This document shows, piece by piece, positions 1,318 to 12,590 of a DNA stretch of 21,728 bases. Both the position numbers and the translations under genes were made by a program. This stretch comes from a virus. Its lineage: Duplodnaviria > Heunggongvirae > Uroviricota > Caudoviricetes. The stretch spans positions 1-21,728 of the IMG/VR virus record IMGVR_UViG_2529292909_000013; one strand, given 5' to 3'. The notes under the pieces are model-generated. The model was not told the DNA's origin. It saw only the letters and a list, made by a program, of their open reading frames with translations, and did no database searches. Numbering within the stretch: position 1 is the first letter of the stretch; every line of letters starts with the position of its first letter.

Positions 1318-1797
1318 GTGAGTATGGCTAACGCCTGGCTCAGATTATGGCATGACATGCCAAATGACCCTAAGTGGCGAACAATTGCCAGGGTGTCAGG
1401 GCAGCCAATTGCAACAGTGATGGCAGTGTATATCCACCTTCTGGTGAGCGCGTCACGAAATGTCACGACATGTCACGGCGTGTCACTACGTGGTCACATT
1501 GATGTCACGACGGAAGATTTAGCAAGTGCGCTTGATGTGACGGAAGAAGTAATTGATTCAATTTTACAGGCAATGCAGGGGCGGGTACTTGATGGAGATT
1601 TAATCACCGGATGGGAAAAACGCCAGGTACTGAAAGAGGACAATGGCAACGTTTCACAAACCGCGAAATCCCCGGCAGAGCGCAAGAGAGCGCAGCGCGA
1701 GAGGGAAAAATTACGAAAACAGAATGAGGGGTGTCACGACGAGTCACGCATATGTCACGACGAGTCACGACAGATAAAGATACAGATAAAGAATTAA
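1318..1797 (+). CDS. Replication initiator, phage replisome-organizer N-terminal domain (O-like); reading frame terminates inside a repeat region
   Basis: GAGGTG Shine-Dalgarno before ATG 1318. N-terminus WLRLWHDMPNDPKWRTIARVSG...AVYIHLL fits the phage replisome organizer N-terminal signature. Carries in-gene direct repeats; frame 1 ends at 1797 shortly after the 21-bp tandem repeat. Confidence 0.55.
   Translation: MSMANAWLRLWHDMPNDPKWRTIARVSGQPIATVMAVYIHLLVSASRNVTTCHGVSLRGHIDVTTEDLASALDVTEEVIDSILQAMQGRVLDGDLITGWEKRQVLKEDNGNVSQTAKSPAERKRAQREREKLRKQNEGCHDESRICHDESRQIKIQIKN
1451..1510. repeat. Six phased direct repeats with GTCAC core at about 10-bp spacing (candidate iterons/origin)
   Basis: cGTCACgaaa tGTCACgaca tGTCACggcg tGTCACtacg tgGTCACatt gatGTCACga read directly; helical-period spacing inside the initiator gene, analogous to lambda ori iterons inside O. 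Confidence 0.5.
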
Positions 1798-2354
1798 ACC
1801 CCACACATAACGCGCACGTGCGCGAGAGTGCTCCGACCAGTGAGTCGAGTGGTACGCCGTTGCAGGCAGCAGAACCTGCATCCCTGGATGGACTGAGCGA
1901 ACCCATCGGGAAATTTCCGATGGTCGATGACTGGCATCCGTCGCCGGATTTTCGACGACGGGCTGCGTTGTGGGGGATGGCTTTGCCGGAGCCGGAATTT
2001 ACACCTGCTGAACTTGCCGCTTTCCGGGACTACTGGGCAGCGGAGGGGAAAGTTTTCACGCAGGTTCAGTGGGAGCAGAAATTCGCCCGTCACGTAAATC
2101 ACGTCAGGGCGCAGGTTAAGCCAGTCAGCAAGGGGGTAAACCATGCAGCAGCACCAGGTGGCACCGCATCACGGGCAGTTCAGGAAATTCGGGCAGCACG
2201 TGAGCAGTGGGAACGTGAAAACGGATTTATCAGCGACGGAAACGGTCTGGAAGCTGTGGGAACTCATGGGGGAGGTTTATTCGAACCGCTGGACCCAGAA
2301 GAACGGGGCCGCACCTTCGAAGCTCTGGATTGCACAGATTGGCGCGATGACTGA
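1731..2354 (+). CDS. Distal part of the replication initiator in a shifted frame (frameshifted gene or separate ORF)
   Basis: Frame-3 ORF opens right after a TGA at 1725..1727 with a GTG at 1731, inside the tandem repeat, and runs to TGA 2352..2354, which overlaps ATG 2347 of the next gene (ATGACTGA coupling). No canonical start or RBS seen. Confidence 0.4.
   Translation: MSRRVTHMSRRVTTDKDTDKELNPTHNAHVRESAPTSESSGTPLQAAEPASLDGLSEPIGKFPMVDDWHPSPDFRRRAALWGMALPEPEFTPAELAAFRDYWAAEGKVFTQVQWEQKFARHVNHVRAQVKPVSKGVNHAAAPGGTASRAVQEIRAAREQWERENGFISDGNGLEAVGTHGGGLFEPLDPEERGRTFEALDCTDWRDD
1732..1773. repeat. Two tandem 21-bp direct repeats (TGTCACGACGAGTCACG core)
   Basis: Copy 1 at 1732..1752 and copy 2 at 1753..1773 share a 17-nt identical core; same GTCAC motif as the upstream iteron cluster. 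The frame switch between the two parts of the replication gene maps here. Confidence 0.5.
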
Positions 2355-2808
2355 GCAGCAAATCCGACAGGTCTGCCGCCAGTGCATGGACCGCTGCCGG
2401 GCGGGTGAAACATGGCCTCCGGACCTGGCTGAGTTTGTGGCACTGATTTCGGAAAGCGGAGCCAATCCATTCGGTCTGACGGTGGATGCTGTGATGGAGG
2501 AGTACCGCCGCTGGCGCAATGAGTCCTGGCGATATGACGGAAGTGATAAGTACCCGTGGCCTCAGCCTGTGCTGTATCACATTTGCCTTGAGATGCGTTC
2601 AAAGGGGATTGAGCGCCAGATGACCGAAGGGGAATTAAAACGGCTTGCAGAACGGCAGCTGACGAAATGGGCAAAGCATGTTAGTAACGGCCTGAGCGTT
2701 CCGCCAGTCCGGCGACAACTGGCGGCACCCAAACGCCCGTCGGGGCCAACGCCAATTGAGCTGCTGAAACAGGAATATGAGCGCCGGAAAGCGGCTGGGT
2801 TTGTTTGA
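2347..2808 (+). CDS. Replication protein P-like (helicase loader family)
   Basis: C-terminal region (WPPDLAEFVAL...YPWPQPVLYHICLEMR...ELKRLAERQL) aligns by eye with lambda P as I recall it. The frame is open from 2143, so the true start may be 2143, 2266 or 2347. Confidence 0.5.
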   Translation: MTEQQIRQVCRQCMDRCRAGETWPPDLAEFVALISESGANPFGLTVDAVMEEYRRWRNESWRYDGSDKYPWPQPVLYHICLEMRSKGIERQMTEGELKRLAERQLTKWAKHVSNGLSVPPVRRQLAAPKRPSGPTPIELLKQEYERRKAAGFV

Positions 2809-2840
2809 GTTGAGAAGTAATTTTTACCGGGAGGAAATTT

Positions 2841-3602
2841 ATGGAGACTGTTTTTGACGCACTGAAAGCGATGGGAAAAGCCACGTCGGTAGAGCTGGCT
2901 GCGCGACTTGATATCAGTCGTGAAGAAGTGCTGAACGAACTATGGGAACTGAAAAAGGCTGGTTTCGTTGATAAAAGCGCGTACACCTGGCGTGTGGCTG
3001 ATAACAACGTTCAGCAGGAACAGCCAGCGCAGGCAGAACTGCCGGAAGAAACCACCACAGCAACAGTAGCGAAAATCTCAGAGTGCGATTTAACCGCAAC
3101 GATTGAACAACGCGGATCACAAACGGCGGATGAACTGGCTACGTTTTTCGGCATCACATCACGCAAAGTGGCTTCAAAGCTGGCAATGGCAATCAGTAAA
3201 GGTCGTCTGATTCGCGTTAATCAGGACGGTAAATTTCGTTACTGCATACCGGGCGCTGATTTACCGGCAGAGCCGGAAGCTGCATCCGTAGCGGAAACGG
3301 ATGGTAAAGCCTTTCCTCAGCCAGCAGGTGCTGCGTTACCAGTCCGGGACGCAGCAACACAGGAAGAAATTAAAACAGAAACTGTGGCGGACATTGTGCA
3401 GCCGTTGCCATCGTTTACCGAAACGCAAGCAGATGAGCTGATTTTTCCGTCCCTTCGCAGGGCAAACCTGGCGCTGCGCAGGGCGAAAAGTGATGTTCAG
3501 AAGTGGGAGCGAGTCTGCGCCGCGCTGCGGGAGCTGAACAAGCACCGGGATATTGTTCGACAGATTACTGATTCTTCCCGCCGTGTTGTATCGGAAAAGT
3601 GA
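2841..3602 (+). CDS. Hypothetical prophage protein with two winged-helix-like segments
   Basis: 253-aa ORF with GGGAGG RBS upstream; two HTH-like stretches ([20 protein letters not shown] and [20 protein letters not shown]) separated by an acidic/proline linker. Confidence 0.5.
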
Positions 3603-3617
3603 TTGCCGGAGGCGCTT

Positions 3618-4040
3618 ATGGCAAAAGCATTTACACAAGAAGAGCGGGAAAAAATTAAAGGGCAGGTTGTTGAACTCGTACGCCAGAGTGGGCGCGAGAC
3701 GTTACGACAACTGGAAACTAAAACTGGGGCAACAAGATATCTGATGAGCGTTCTGGCCAGAGAGCTGGTTGCCAGTGGCGATGTATACAACTCTGGTTAC
3801 GGGTTATTCCCGTCTGAACAGGCGCGTAAGGACTGGCAAAATGCCCGTAAAAAGCTCTCAAGGGCAAAGCCGAAGAAACCATCTGCGGTTGATCCGGACC
3901 TTATCTGGTCGTTACCAGACGGCGAAATACGCCGCTACGACAGGCGTCAAAACATAATCTGTCGCGAGTGCTGGAAGAGTGAAGCTATGCAGCGTGTACT
4001 GGCTTTCTATCAGGGGAATTTTCAGAAGGTGCTGTTGTGA
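3618..4040 (+). CDS. Hypothetical protein
   Basis: ATG at 3618 preceded by GGAGG; 140 aa; basic central region; no recognisable family. Confidence 0.45.
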   Translation: MAKAFTQEEREKIKGQVVELVRQSGRETLRQLETKTGATRYLMSVLARELVASGDVYNSGYGLFPSEQARKDWQNARKKLSRAKPKKPSAVDPDLIWSLPDGEIRRYDRRQNIICRECWKSEAMQRVLAFYQGNFQKVLL

Positions 4041-4151
4041 GCCAAATTAACAATCGGAACTTCGTGAAGAGAAAGAGAAAGCATAATCCAAATCTGAATA
4101 ATTAAGTTCAGCACTGTAAATAAAATTTAATCCTTAACTGGAGGTATATCT

Positions 4152-4364
4152 ATGTCAAATACACAGAAAATTATTAACACTGAAAAATATAACGAGTGGG
4201 TGAAAAAATTCTCTGAACAGATTTTTAAAATTACTGGCGACGAGAATGTGGCAAAAAATGAATTAGAACCGTGGACACCTGAAGGAAACGCACCAAATTA
4301 TTGCTGGTGGGAGGTTGATCCGGTTGATGCTGCAAATGAAGCCATGAGTTACCACAACGATTAA
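4152..4364 (+). CDS. Hypothetical small acidic protein (A+T-rich island)
   Basis: 70-aa ORF with GGAGG RBS; A+T-rich compared with flanking DNA. Confidence 0.45.
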   Translation: MSNTQKIINTEKYNEWVKKFSEQIFKITGDENVAKNELEPWTPEGNAPNYCWWEVDPVDAANEAMSYHND

Positions 4365-4396
4365 TGTCGGGAGGCCGCCCGAAAGGGCGGTAAGAA

Positions 4397-4615
4397 ATGA
4401 CTACATTATTCAGAAAAGAATATCCGCAAAAAAGTAGAGCGACAGAATTTTTGTTTCTCATTCTGTTTATCGTATTGATGATACCGATATCCCCTCTAAT
4501 TGTTGTCTGGGCAATCGGGAAAATAATTGAGCCAGTTACTGAATTGTATACCGACGTTGTATGGGCGTCGTTCAACACACTGCACAATAAAATTAATCCG
4601 TATAAGGAAAACTGA
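4397..4615 (+). CDS. Hypothetical small membrane protein
   Basis: 72 aa with a long hydrophobic stretch (FLFLILFIVLMIPISPLIVVWAIG). Preceded by a GC stem with GAAA tetraloop (ggccgcccGAAAgggcgg, about 4371..4389) that has no T-tract. Confidence 0.4.
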   Translation: MTTLFRKEYPQKSRATEFLFLILFIVLMIPISPLIVVWAIGKIIEPVTELYTDVVWASFNTLHNKINPYKEN

Positions 4616-4616
4616 T

Positions 4617-4880
4617 ATGGCAACTTTGACAAAAAAAGAACGGGCATGGTTGAACGAATTACAGGAAGTTCTTGATCGCTGTCCATCACCGAAAAAAATT
4701 GGCTTTTACACCATTGGCGATAAAAGCATTTACCTGTATGACCTACGCCGCATGGATGAAATCATGGAGGCTCTTGATAATCGTTCGTCGATGGATTGGT
4801 GTGTTGCTGTTCATGATATGAATGCAGGGTTTGATGAAAAGATTTTGTTCCCCTCATCAGTTGAAAGCACTGCGGGTTAA
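4617..4880 (+). CDS. Hypothetical protein
   Basis: ATG 4617 two nt after the stop of the preceding ORF; 87 aa. Confidence 0.45.
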   Translation: MATLTKKERAWLNELQEVLDRCPSPKKIGFYTIGDKSIYLYDLRRMDEIMEALDNRSSMDWCVAVHDMNAGFDEKILFPSSVESTAG

Positions 4881-4890
4881 GGAGTAACAC

Positions 4891-5058
4891 ATGACCACTA
4901 TTACCAAAGAACGTATTGAATTGTTCATTAAAAACCCGCTTGAAAACGGGCTTACCCGTGGTGAACAAATGGAACTGGCACGGATTGCGCTGGCATCGCT
5001 GGAAGCAGAGCCGGTTGTGTTCTGGTTTGAAAAATATCAAGAAGGGGCTACGGCATGA
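4891..5058 (+). CDS. Hypothetical small protein (55 aa)
   Basis: AAGGAG RBS before ATG 4891; stop overlaps the next start (ATGA at 5055..5058); shares the motif IAL-SL-AEP with the next ORF. Below the 60-aa cutoff of the supplied track. Confidence 0.35.
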
Positions 5059-5399
5059 CGACTTTTACCAGAGAGCAGTTAATAGCTCACGCAGAGGAGA
5101 CTATTGAAGCACAGAGACTGTGCATACCGGGCACAATCGACCATGACATCATCCGCACATATAAGATGGATATTGCTGTTCTGGAAATCGCACTGGTATC
5201 GCTGGCAGCAGAGCCAGCCGGTAAATTGCATGAATACAAACCAGTGGGATATCAGCGTCTGGTCGATGAGTTAACCATGCTGGTAAAGCAGTTAACCTGG
5301 CAACTGAGGAAAGCGAAGCCAGACTGCAAATTACCGGATAAGGCGATGAGTTATCTGGAGCGGAACGGACTGATAAGCGTGGAGGATATTTTACGATGA
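5055..5399 (+). CDS. Hypothetical protein
   Basis: 114 aa; translationally coupled on both sides (ATGA overlaps at 5055 and 5396). Confidence 0.45.
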
Positions 5400-5479: not shown

Positions 5480-5690
5480 AAACGGTTTGCGGGAAAAGGA
5501 GAGTTAAGTAGAATTGCAGCGGGTGCTTGAGGCTATCTGTCTCAGGCATGAACACCAAAAGGCAGATAGAGAAAAGCCCCAGTTAACATTACGCGTCCGG
5601 CAAGACGCTTAACATTAATCTGAGGCCATATCTATGCTCTACACACGTAGGTTAGCCTCTTACGTGCCGAAAGGCAAGGAGAAGCAGGCT

Positions 5691-5846
5691 ATGAAGCAGC
5701 AAAAGGCGATGCTAATCGCCCTGATCGTCATCTGTTTAACCGTCATAGTGACGGCACTGGTAACGAGGAAAGACCTCTGCGAGGTACGAATCCGAACCGG
5801 CCAGACGGAGGTCGCTGTCTTCACAGCTTACGAACCTGAGGAGTAA
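5691..5846 (+). CDS. hokD: Hok/Gef-family type I toxin (HokD/RelF-like)
   Basis: 51-aa product MKQQKAMLIALIVICLTVIVTALVTRKDLCEVRIRTGQTEVAVFTAYEPEE matches Hok-family membrane toxins as I recall them; AAGGAG RBS at 5676..5681; in-frame upstream ATG at 5634 could be the mok-like start. Confidence 0.85.
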   Translation: MKQQKAMLIALIVICLTVIVTALVTRKDLCEVRIRTGQTEVAVFTAYEPEE

Positions 5847-10494: not shown

Positions 10495-11544
10495 ATGGCT
10501 AATACTGTAAAAATATCCAGTTGTGAGTTAATCAACGCTGATTGCCTGGAATTTATCCAGACCTTACCGGAAAACTCTGTCGATCTTATAGTCACAGACC
10601 CGCCATACTTTAAAGTGAAACCCGAGGGCTGGGATAACCAGTGGAAGGGCGACGATGATTACCTGAAGTGGCTGGACCAGTGTCTGGCGCAGTTCTGGCG
10701 GGTGCTGAAACCTGTCGGAAGTCTTTACCTGTTCTGTGGTCATCGCCTGGCATCTGATATCGAAATCATGATGCGTGAACGCTTCAGTGTGCTGAACCAT
10801 ATTATCTGGGCGAAGCCGTCCGGACGCTGGAACGGATGCAACAAGGAAAGCCTGCGGGCGTATTTCCCCGCCACAGAGCGCATTCTGTTCGCGGAACATT
10901 ATCAGGGGCCGTATCGTCCGAAAGATGCCGGGTATGCGGCGAAGGGCAGTGCACTGAAACAGCATGTGATGGCCCCGCTGATTTCTTACTTTCGTGATGC
11001 GCGCGCGGCCCTGGGGATAACGGCAAAACAGATTGCAGATGCCACAGGAAAGAAAAACATGGTGTCGCACTGGTTCAGTGCCAGTCAGTGGCAGCTACCG
11101 AACGAAAGCGATTATCTGAAATTACAGTCGCTGTTTGCCCGGGTGGCAGAAGAGAAACATCAGCGCGGTGAACTGGAAAAGCCCCACCACCAGCTGGTGG
11201 ATACGTATACGTCACTGAACCGGCAGTATGTGGAGCTGCAGAGTGAATATAAGCATCTGCGGCGGTATTTTGGTGTGACGGCGCAGGTGCCGTACACGGA
11301 TGTGTGGACACATAAACCGGTGCAGTTCTATCCCGGGAAACATCCGTGCGAAAAACCGGCAGAAATGCTGCAGCAGATAATCAGCGCAAGTAGCCGTCCT
11401 GGTGATCTGGTTGCGGATTTTTTCATGGGGTCGGGTTCAACGGTAAAAGCGGCGATGGCACTGGGGCGTCGTGCGATTGGTGTTGAGCTGGAGACCGGAC
11501 GTTTTGAGCAGACAGTCAGGGAAGTTCAGGATTTAATCGTTTGA
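10495..11544 (+). CDS. DNA methyltransferase (beta-class amino-methyltransferase, N6-adenine or N4-cytosine)
   Basis: 349 aa with the catalytic motif DPPY (IVTDPPYF) near the N-terminus and an FxGxG-type AdoMet motif (FFMGSGST) near the C-terminus. No adjacent restriction endonuclease gene. Confidence 0.8.
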   Translation: MANTVKISSCELINADCLEFIQTLPENSVDLIVTDPPYFKVKPEGWDNQWKGDDDYLKWLDQCLAQFWRVLKPVGSLYLFCGHRLASDIEIMMRERFSVLNHIIWAKPSGRWNGCNKESLRAYFPATERILFAEHYQGPYRPKDAGYAAKGSALKQHVMAPLISYFRDARAALGITAKQIADATGKKNMVSHWFSASQWQLPNESDYLKLQSLFARVAEEKHQRGELEKPHHQLVDTYTSLNRQYVELQSEYKHLRRYFGVTAQVPYTDVWTHKPVQFYPGKHPCEKPAEMLQQIISASSRPGDLVADFFMGSGSTVKAAMALGRRAIGVELETGRFEQTVREVQDLIV

Positions 11545-11593
11545 AACGGATGAGATTGCAGAATTAATTACGCACCATTATTATTCTGCTCCC

Positions 11594-11669
11594 GGCCCTT
11601 TAGCTCAGTGGTGAGAGCGAGCGACTCATAATCGCCAGGTCGCTGGTTCAAATCCAGCAAGGGCCACCA
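11594..11669 (+). tRNA. ileZ: tRNA with CAT anticodon (Ile2/Met type)
   Basis: Cloverleaf folded by hand: acceptor GGCCCTT/AAGGGCC, anticodon loop cTCATaa, T-loop TTCAAAT, 3' CCA encoded. Symbol follows Stx-phage naming. Confidence 0.75.
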
Positions 11670-11676
11670 TCACATA

Positions 11677-11753
11677 CCGCCATTAGCTCATCAGGAAAGA
11701 GCGCCAGCCTTCGAAGCTGGTTGCGCGGAGTTCGGGTCCCCGAAGGCGGTCCA
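11677..11753 (+). tRNA. argN: tRNA-Arg (TCG anticodon), slightly non-canonical
   Basis: Anticodon stem CCAGC/GCTGG with loop cTTCGaa; T-loop TTCGGGT; one mismatch each in acceptor and T stems; CCA encoded. Confidence 0.55.
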
Positions 11754-11766
11754 TTATCTGTATCCT

Positions 11767-11843
11767 GCGTTGTTAGCTCAGCCGGACAGAGCAATTGCCT
11801 TCTAAGCAATCGGTCACTGGTTCGAATCCAGTACAACGCGCCA
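11767..11843 (+). tRNA. argO: tRNA-Arg (TCT anticodon)
   Basis: Acceptor GCGTTGT/ACAACGC, anticodon loop cTTCTaa, T-loop TTCGAAT, CCA encoded. Confidence 0.8.
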
Positions 11844-11855
11844 CACTTATTTTCC

Positions 11856-11882
11856 CTGGCTCGCTTTTGCGGGCTTTTTTTT
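11856..11882 (+). terminator. Putative intrinsic terminator after the tRNA cluster
   Basis: gctcgc-tttt-gcgggc hairpin (one G-U pair) followed by TTTTTTTT. Confidence 0.45.
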
Positions 11883-11887
11883 AAATG

Positions 11888-12105
11888 TCTCACAATTCAG
11901 GCGGTTGACTGTTGTCTGGTTTGCGGGGAGTTTGTTAAAAGAAACTGGCATGGTGAATCCCCCTGTGCGGAGGGGCAATCAGCGAGTAGGTATATGGGAT
12001 AATCGCGGATTCAGGTGCTGGTACTGAATTCACCGGGAGGCACCCGGCACCATGCAATGGCACATAGCGCCACTCTCCAGCCCCTCTCCGGAGGGGCTTT
12101 TCTGT
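11888..12105 (+). repeat. Copy A of a tandemly duplicated module of about 220-235 bp (TTGAC hexamer, two hairpins, intrinsic terminator)
   Basis: Shares with copy B, in the same order: CTCACAATTCAG, TTGAC(T/A), hairpin CCCCCTG(T/A)GCGGAGGGG, hairpin CACCGGGAGGCACCCGGCACCATG, terminator CCCCTCTCCGGAGGGG + T-run. Confidence 0.6.
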
Positions 12106-12355
12106 GCCGGATACATCACAGTTTCTGGAACCTTAGGTACTACAGTATCAGTCAGGGTGCTATATTTTCAGATGTGATGAAAGCCTGTCAGCAGGCAGGG
12201 CGTATCGGAAATGACCCAGTAGAGAAAACGTTGACTCAGATACCGGTGCTGAGTTACCGGGAAACCGGCATCACATGACCGCTATCCTTCCAGGCCCATC
12301 CGCTCCGGTGGGCCTTTTTACTGCAGAAAACAGGTTCCCCGTTAAATGCTATGTT

Positions 12356-12590
12356 GCTCACAATTCAGTAAGTTGACAGTTGCCTGTCAGACTGGGCATT
12401 TGTTAAAAAAATTTCGCATGGTGAATCCCCCTGAGCGGAGGGGCGACTGGTGACGGTATAATCTCTGATTATCAAAACGAGAATGACGCGGGTTTAGTGG
12501 CACCGGGCTGAACTCACCGGGAGGCACCCGGCACCATGTGCATGATGATACAGATACGCGGCTTTAGCCCCTCTCCGGAGGGGTTTTCTT
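12356..12590 (+). repeat. Copy B of the same module
   Basis: See copy A. A further intrinsic terminator (ggcccatccgctccggtgggcc + T-run, about 12293..12320) lies between the copies. Confidence 0.6.

Follow-up and report, generated by a model that had tools for sequence, protein, structure and literature searches.

A candidate hairpin-bridged ribosome-binding cassette found before unrelated accessory genes in lambdoid prophages of Escherichia coli

The 4041-4880 interval and the start of ORF2

We analysed a window of 21,728 nucleotides (nt) of tailed-phage DNA (IMG/VR record IMGVR_UViG_2529292909_000013, positions 1 to 21,728) and describe here its interval 4041-4880, which carries three small open reading frames (ORF1, ORF2 and ORF3) and, directly before ORF2, a short G+C hairpin that is probably the core of a portable ribosome-binding cassette. 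The window corresponds to the early-right part of a Qin/Rac-like prophage of E. coli, of the lambdoid kind. Its genes run in the order cI-like repressor, cro-like gene, YdaT, replication genes, DUF1627, a DUF977/Ren-like gene (3603-4040), the 4041-4880 interval, hokD, DUF968 and RusA. Near-identical DNA (98.8-99.1%) is found in many E. coli chromosomes, among them ATCC 25922 with 98.8% identity, and in such prophages, for example that of ATCC 25922, the RefSeq annotation calls ORF1, ORF2 and ORF3 on the same strand.

The interval has a G+C content of 38.9% compared to 48.1% for the whole window and 53.4% for the replication block (1318-4040), and ranks 11th lowest among 1045 windows of 840 nt. 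This windowed computation confirms the suggestion of an earlier reading made from the letters of this DNA (the sequence-only reading) that the region is A+T-richer than the adjoining replication genes. Its low G+C island is real and was drawn too narrowly, as ORF3 also lies within it; the two ORFs that it had described, one encoding an acidic protein of 70 amino acids (aa) and one a 72-aa protein with a hydrophobic core, are where it had placed them (Table 1).

The interval opens with an A+T-rich leader, and a scan of 4041-4151 for promoter- or terminator-like sites found none. Within this leader, 4079-4151 takes in the final ~15 nt of another gene (…AATCCAAATCTGA) as well as GGAGG at 4140-4144, which is the Shine-Dalgarno sequence of ORF1.

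Table 1 Features of the 4041-4880 interval and of cassette copies elsewhere
Feature	Position	Strand	Description
A+T-rich intergenic leader	4041..4151	+	31.5% G+C; from composition and alignment with the ArgO145 and ATCC 25922 leaders
ORF1	4152..4364	+	70 aa, acidic, PHROG 4659, no Pfam family
GGGAGG, Shine-Dalgarno-like	4369..4374	+	last base 22 nt from the ORF2 ATG; sole such sequence upstream of ORF2
Hairpin CCGCCC-GAAA-GGGCGG	4375..4390	+	all-G+C stem of 6 base pairs (bp); extends to 4374-4391 with a G4374:U4391 wobble
A-rich spacer TAAGAA	4391..4396	+	6 nt, between hairpin and start codon
ORF2	4397..4615	+	72 aa, DUF4014 (PF13198), PHROG 1832, single predicted membrane helix
ORF3	4617..4880	+	87 aa, acidic, PHROG 1714, no Pfam family; starts 1 nt past the ORF2 stop
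Cassette + DUF4014			spacer 6 nt
Cassette + DUF7167			spacer 7 nt (TAGTTAA; upstream in-frame stop checked by eye)
Cassette + unnamed family starting MTELTKEQL			spacer 8-9 nt
Cassette + Q antiterminator-domain protein			spacer 11 nt, with an extra GGAG of its own
Leader + cassette in the ATCC 25922 prophage	L001:10325-10418		

The start of ORF2 is fixed at ATG 4397, because an in-frame TAA in the spacer, two codons upstream, makes this the first possible start. A duplex scan with the anti-Shine-Dalgarno sequence gave its best 8-mer at 4368-4375 (-10.3 kcal/mol), and found nothing in the 6-nt spacer and no other site within 20 nt of the ORF2 ATG. The hairpin takes up 16 of the 22 nt between this Shine-Dalgarno sequence and the ATG, and 6 nt remain. 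ORF1 (5-7 nt before its ATG), ORF3 and the next two genes have ordinary Shine-Dalgarno sequences 4-8 nt from the ATG. ORF2 belongs to the DUF4014 family, and all distinct DUF4014 upstream regions without this hairpin block (8/8, including that of phage epsilon15) carry GGAG or GGGAG 6-7 nt from the ATG. Four marks of a split ribosome-binding site are found at ORF2: a distance of 22 nt, far above the functional 5-9 nt, a hairpin lying wholly between, a residual spacing of 6 nt and no alternative Shine-Dalgarno sequence.

Folding gives the hairpin an energy of -12.4 kcal/mol (16 nt), or -14.4 kcal/mol in its 18-nt form, and the stem is paired in ~100% of the ensemble (probability unpaired 0.00-0.01). 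The mean probability of being unpaired is 0.51 for the Shine-Dalgarno sequence, 0.79 for the spacer and 0.40 for the AUG. The folding run bears out the perfect 6-bp GC stem, the GAAA loop and the missing T-tract of the sequence-only reading, and moves the hairpin from 4371-4389 to 4375-4390. In shuffles of the whole 21.7-kb window, all-G+C 6-bp hairpins are unremarkable (mean 0.19; at least one in 51 of 300), while in shuffles of the A+T-rich 840 nt such a hairpin is remarkable (1 in 2000). It is the comparative sequence data, rather than a shuffle statistic, that show the hairpin not to be a chance feature.

The window contains no second cassette copy within 3 mismatches. Over 3800-5200, and likewise over the full leader of the ATCC 25922 prophage, matches to Rfam covariance models stayed at chance level (E ≥ 1), and a literature search with the hairpin sequence gave no match.

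A recurrent Shine-Dalgarno-hairpin block

DUF4014 upstream regions, drawn from viral contigs picked by protein similarity alone, share a conserved block that runs from TC(A/G)GGAGG through the hairpin to the ATG. This block stands behind two quite different 5′ flanks, one being the 3′ end of ORF1 (…GATTAATGTC) and the other a short non-coding leader (…GGAGGGATTTCTGCACCCTCAGAACATC). We refer to the ~24 nt (C)AGGAGG-CCGCCCGAAAGGGCGG-TA as the cassette; AGGAGG or GGGAGG lies directly 5′ of the hairpin in every copy. Pattern scans of viral contigs yielded 105 distinct cassette copies, with a scorable downstream gene in 92. One of the 105, at L145:11454-11476, is left out of the cassette counts: this 23-mer (CAGGAGGCCGCCCGAAAGGGCGG), which had been hoped to provide a G-C seventh pair, is a chance match within the coding sequence of a P2-like terminase small subunit (gpM-like).

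The genes behind the cassette belong to at least four unrelated families (Table 1), and the distance from hairpin to start codon is 6, 7, 8-9 or 11 nt in the 92 scored copies. In all families except the Q-like one, the GGAGG just 5′ of the hairpin is the sole Shine-Dalgarno sequence. Five IMG/VR contigs (L130, L124, L129, L170 and L244) carry the cassette before a 171-aa protein that joins an Ea22-like N-terminal motif (MEITKERLL) to a Phage_antitermQ domain (PF06530), and the GGAG of these copies lies 7 nt from the ATG.

Each of the two 5′ flank types is seen before DUF4014, before DUF7167 and before the MTELTKEQL family, and the switch from one flank to another falls precisely on the two ends of the ~24-nt block. 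By this pattern the cassette is a mosaic joint, a property that is compatible with, and no rival to, a ribosome-binding role. Lambdoid phages are said to carry module-boundary 'linker' sequences at gene-boundary mosaic joints, reportedly described by Clark et al. 2001 for HK620. Linkers and cassette alike are short conserved sequences at a gene boundary whose flanking genes differ on both sides; the cassette differs in its defined anatomy (Shine-Dalgarno sequence, hairpin and spacer) and in its high abundance.

Two cassette copies occur in some contigs and in the ATCC 25922 prophage. Leader plus cassette, 94 nt together, is found at 3397 places in 2394 of 5426 complete E. coli genomes, with up to 7 places per genome. 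The match extends over 80% or more of the query in 1860 of them, so that the proportion of complete genomes with this element is about one third or higher. Most of the matches listed lie over no annotated feature or merely clip the downstream gene. The window leader at 4079-4151 is homologous to the 5′ half of the conserved leader, and the short leader therefore looks like the ORF1 arrangement minus ORF1. Two further features of the conserved leader are an A+U-rich palindrome and, overlying a GGAGG, another small hairpin (GAGGG…CCCUC).

A search of 4.6 Mb of phage DNA on both strands for other hairpin types with the same order of Shine-Dalgarno sequence, hairpin and ATG returned essentially this cassette only.

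Nowhere in the locus is variation lower than in the hairpin, whose nucleotide diversity is 0.003 compared to 0.063-0.143 at DUF4014 codon positions and 0.36 in the 5′ flank. Among copies picked by their 5′ flank only, all six pairs are kept in 79 of 85. Recurrent variants are C-to-T changes at stem positions 2, 4, 5, 6 and 14, which give G:U on the sense RNA but would give A:C on the opposite strand; the seventh pair is G:U, A:U or unpaired. Over 31 haplotypes, 96.3% of stem cells pair. Stem changes are one-sided at 6 of the 7 pairs and mostly produce a wobble, or A-U at the seventh pair.

Genes that accompany the cassette

ORF2 is a full-length member of DUF4014 (E 3e-25, 88.8 bits against a cut-off of 23.2), with residues 1-72 aligned to model positions 1-72. 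A basic N-terminus is predicted to lead into a proline-kinked membrane helix, whose Kyte-Doolittle hydropathy over 19 residues peaks at 3.03 (LFLILFIVLMIPISPLIVV), and this is followed by a long conserved C-terminal helix that closes with LHNKINPYKEN. The AlphaFold2 (AF2) model has helices at 12-28 and 31-66, together a long kinked helix (predicted local distance difference test, pLDDT, 80). ORF2 has no match among PDB sequences, and neither ORF1 nor ORF2 has a match in the NCBIfam library.

In the complete E. coli genomes DUF4014 is present at 1704 places in 1003 genomes. Relatives are found in 127 phage records, including 933W (L0067), VT2-Sakai, epsilon15 (gp46), epsilon34 (gp27), ES18 (gp39), HK225 and D6. 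In these phages they lie among Ead/Ea22/EaA-type early genes. The setting differs: ORF2 follows the replication genes in the rightward operon, whereas the DUF4014 gene of known phages such as 933W lies between exo and xis in the leftward operon. The best explanation of the interval is a patch of early accessory genes, of the exo-xis or 'ea' type, that the rightward early operon carries behind its replication genes. The view of the sequence-only reading that this is a patch of small conserved accessory genes holds well, with no function assigned to ORF1 or ORF2; the two turned out to be neither core genes of known function nor unconserved, the two outcomes it had named as speaking against it.

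We predict, with low confidence, that DUF4014 is probably a small inner-membrane protein with a cytoplasmic N-terminus, made early in lytic growth and acting on a component of the host envelope. A literature search found no publication using the name DUF4014. The database label 'released from the phage upon host infection' could be traced to no publication. The label 'acetyltransferase inhibitor' is the depositor's product name in phage MG40 only; a search with epsilon15 gave only unrelated papers among those listed, and epsilon15 gp46 is 'hypothetical' in the depositor's own record. We consider both labels unsupported. DUF4014, the leader and the cassette also occur in PP818812.1, deposited as 'Actinobacillus phage vB_Apl-pPE4', whose positions 11326-12584 are ~90% identical to this lambdoid region; its host assignment looks doubtful.

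ORF1 encodes a protein with an isoelectric point of 4.47 (13 acidic and 6 basic residues). Remote relatives were sought among 1.84 billion representative proteins, setting aside low-complexity matches to giant proteins. The family is restricted to Escherichia/Shigella apart from two relatives at 46-47% identity, and a distant relative lies in a nin region. The AF2 model is a three-helix bundle (pLDDT 81), and searches of PDB sequences, folds and viral folds gave no significant match. ORF1 is probably a small acidic three-helix cytoplasmic protein that binds another protein, a prediction held with low confidence. ORF1 is found at 548 places in 445 of the complete E. coli genomes and in 8 phage records. 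By these sequence counts, ORF1 and DUF4014 are both common prophage accessory genes.

Megablast breaks the interval into distinct mosaic units corresponding to ORF1, ORF2 and ORF3. From the megablast boundaries (query 562-573), ORF3 appears as a separate mosaic unit inside the same low-G+C stretch. The gene 3′ of DUF4014 varies, being ORF3 (PHROG 1714) in the window, an HNH endonuclease gene in phage ArgO145, L0066 in 933W and a gene for a DUF551 protein in epsilon15. ORF3 and the ArgO145 HNH gene have only their first ~10 codons in common, MA(T)LTKK(E/Q)RA (window 4600-4650; L084:2780-2840). We rejected the idea that ORF3 is a truncated HNH endonuclease, as the likeness ends after these residues; the alignment instead marks the ORF3/HNH junction as another mosaic joint within a translation-initiation region.

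A minus-strand ORF at 4231-4689 (152 aa, GTG start), antisense to ORF1-ORF3, was treated as spurious, as it is missing from the RefSeq annotation and the variability at third positions agrees with the plus-strand frame.

Other features of the window lie outside the patch. Upstream of it, the DUF977/Ren-like gene is intact, and the ATCC 25922 copy (L001:8578-9000) is annotated as a pseudogene with an internal stop. The O-like replication gene appears as two overlapping ORFs in different frames (1318-1797 and 1731-2354) and contains tandem 10-nt GTCACGAC-type repeats at 1452-1497 and 1733-1771. These may be iteron-like origin repeats, or the O-like gene may be frameshifted. The ATCC 25922 prophage has a different replication module at the position of the O-like gene. 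Downstream of the patch, an ORF at 5634-5846 (…MKQQKAMLIALIVICLTVIVTALVTRKDLCEVRIRTGQTEVAVFTAYEPEE) encodes a HokD-type type I toxin, a name taken from the ATCC 25922 annotation.

Explanations and meaning

Based on these comparisons, we favour the explanation of a portable, hairpin-bridged ribosome-binding cassette, built around this hairpin and serving at the same time as a recombination joint (probability roughly 0.55). The order of its parts would be AGGAGG, the 16-nt G+C hairpin, an A-rich spacer of 6-9 nt and the start codon. Upon folding in the mRNA, the hairpin would loop out 16 of the 22 nt and leave a Shine-Dalgarno-AUG spacing of ~6 nt; the 30S subunit could then pair with GGAGG with the AUG set in the P site. 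The cassette would also act as, or mark, a short homology patch for gene exchange between prophages, because the same ~24 nt precede many different genes.

Split, or 'accommodated', sites have been described for phage T4 (Nivinskas et al. 1999; Malys & Nivinskas 2009). According to a review of that work (PMC3014915), a hairpin reduces the Shine-Dalgarno-AUG distance from 22 to 5 nt at gene 38 and from 27 to 11 nt at gene 25; mutations that destabilise the stem lower translation, and the stem is kept in close relatives only. ORF2 shares with genes 38 and 25 the over-distant Shine-Dalgarno sequence and the stable hairpin wholly between it and the start codon. In both systems the stem is conserved among close relatives and more distant ones have an ordinary site. 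By analogy with T4, we infer that the hairpin raises ORF2 translation. There are also differences: the ORF2 cassette lies in a temperate lambdoid prophage, has a GAAA loop and shows no compensatory covariation. The T4 site, moreover, belongs to one gene, whereas the cassette is reused before at least four unrelated genes.

Several observations weigh against this explanation. Compensatory two-sided changes are absent across the 31 haplotypes, and because there is so little variation in the element, pair statistics do not rise above those of shuffles; what speaks for the structure is its thermodynamics, its conservation and the bias of its variants towards wobble pairs. Some copies have the loop GGCA or UAAA, and 6 of the 85 flank-picked copies have stem-breaking haplotypes. 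The Q-like family has a second GGAG, past the hairpin and at canonical spacing, and can therefore do without the cassette as a Shine-Dalgarno sequence. Finally, the near-identity of the sequence could equally come from recent spread, from gene conversion between copies, of which a genome can have up to 7, or from recognition by a protein.

The block might be a recombination joint at the DNA level and nothing else, a 'linker' for homologous or Red-type shuffling with an incidental hairpin and an ORF2 translated poorly or by other means. This would fit the mosaic boundaries exactly at both edges, the pairing of both 5′ flank types with several 3′ genes, the near-invariance of the sequence itself and not of pairing alone, and the presence of leader plus cassette in 1860-2394 of the 5426 genomes with up to 7 copies each. 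It would also fit the exchange of diverged sequences by lambda Red through short identical stretches (PMC2327257). We nonetheless find it unlikely as a full account: it leaves unexplained why a strong Shine-Dalgarno sequence and a stable hairpin ending 6-11 nt before the start codon are constant, why the downstream genes have no Shine-Dalgarno sequence of their own and why cassette-less DUF4014 genes have one at normal spacing, and the common variants preserve pairing on the sense strand only. A joint of this kind is compatible with the favoured explanation rather than an alternative to it. Close to an idea of the sequence-only reading, and in our judgement quite unlikely, is an element of mRNA stability or processing, either a barrier to 3′ exonucleases for the upstream message or a 5′ stabiliser after cleavage in the A+U-rich leader. 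The C(GAAA)G hairpin is very stable, has no T-run, lies 10 nt past the ORF1 stop codon and has A+U-rich, RNase E-prone surroundings. Most copies, however, follow a ~75-nt non-coding leader with no gene ending nearby, and a stabiliser would need neither the fixed distance to the start codon nor the adjacent GGAGG. RNase III requires about two helical turns, and a stem of 6-7 bp is far too short for it. The proposal of a processing element belonging to this gene pair is likewise unsupported, the hairpin being present, as part of the cassette, before DUF7167, the Q-like protein and another family. In a nut site, boxA lies a few nt upstream of boxB, a 5-bp stem with a GNRA-like pentaloop, and the whole is found just downstream of early promoters. 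The cassette hairpin resembles lambda boxB superficially in being a short G+C stem with a GNRA-type (GAAA) loop in an early transcript. An operator recognised in trans by an RNA-binding protein, whether an N-like or boxB-type factor or a translational repressor, would make the cassette genes a small regulon, in keeping with a stem and, mostly, a GNRA loop conserved at the sequence level across many genes and with the several copies possible per prophage. It is very unlikely, given the GGCA and UAAA loops, the tetraloop on a 6-7-bp stem, the repetition before individual genes far from early promoters and the lack of a candidate binding protein. As a nut site the hairpin was rejected, since there is no boxA in 4340-4374 and it lies 3.5 kb downstream of the cro-like gene.

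Looking at the two genes rather than the hairpin, ORF1 and ORF2 could form a two-gene module of a soluble partner and a membrane effector (exclusion or toxin/antidote) with the hairpin setting their expression ratio, which is close to what the sequence-only reading had suggested. The genes are an acidic and a membrane protein gene, both small; their junction with the hairpin is intact in 228 complete E. coli genomes, the whole 860 nt is covered in 401, and the 3′ part of the ORF1 coding sequence is predicted to pair weakly with the region around the ORF2 start, which could couple them. The module is not supported, because the two assort independently (1704 places for DUF4014 and 548 for ORF1). 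Most DUF4014 copies have no ORF1 upstream, and 127 phage records have DUF4014 compared to 8 with ORF1. For example, in ArgO145 ORF1 (gp16) and DUF4014 (gp12) are 1.1 kb apart; the cassette behind ORF1 precedes DUF7167 there, and a second copy behind the short leader precedes DUF4014. The distant ORF1 relative has no DUF4014 neighbour, and the short leader resembles an ORF1 deletion that spares DUF4014. PADLOC-DB gave no match at E ≤ 0.1 for ORF1, ORF2, ORF3 or the neighbouring genes, and no defence or toxin-antitoxin family was matched. A module is accordingly most improbable, and the remote homology searches (PADLOC, NCBIfam, PDB and folds) lend nothing to a role in exclusion, toxicity or defence. 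As far as genome comparison tells, ORF1 and ORF2 are independent mosaic accessory genes. The case for an intrinsic transcription terminator or attenuator is weaker still and close to nil: the stem-loop is G+C-rich, and the identical 16-mer followed by a T-run does occur in unrelated viral contigs (IMG/VR), where it looks like an ordinary intrinsic terminator. At this locus neither strand has a T-run: the stem continues into TAAGAAAT in the sense orientation and into CCTCCCGA in the opposite one, and its tail reads UAAGAAAU. The terminator scan is silent at the hairpin, which lies within a ribosome-binding region and has a start codon 6 nt away. We therefore rejected it as a Rho-independent terminator, in line with the sequence-only reading, which had taken it for an element acting at the RNA level.

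Returning to the ribosome-binding cassette, a wider and distinctly tentative proposal is that the ~24-nt block and the ~70-nt A+T-rich leader form an undescribed 'plug-in' element of E. coli lambdoid prophages. Such an element would supply a context-independent ribosome-binding site to any gene behind it and a patch for swapping genes and, through its near-invariant sequence, possibly a common operator that co-controls the cassette genes.

The cassette would be a translation signal of a known type, and its reuse and abundance are what set it apart. Our literature search found no published description of a T4-type split ribosome-binding site in temperate lambdoid phages. Although carried by roughly one in three complete E. 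coli genomes or more, the cassette is currently unannotated, and gene callers that expect canonical Shine-Dalgarno spacing may mis-score the starts of the genes behind it. If our explanation is true, a T4-type split ribosome-binding site exists in temperate lambdoid phages and has been put to repeated use there, as a movable cassette, ahead of unrelated genes. The cassette would then be a natural counterpart of an insulated ribosome-binding part, and would mark the points at which accessory genes are exchanged in prophages, Shiga-toxin phages included.

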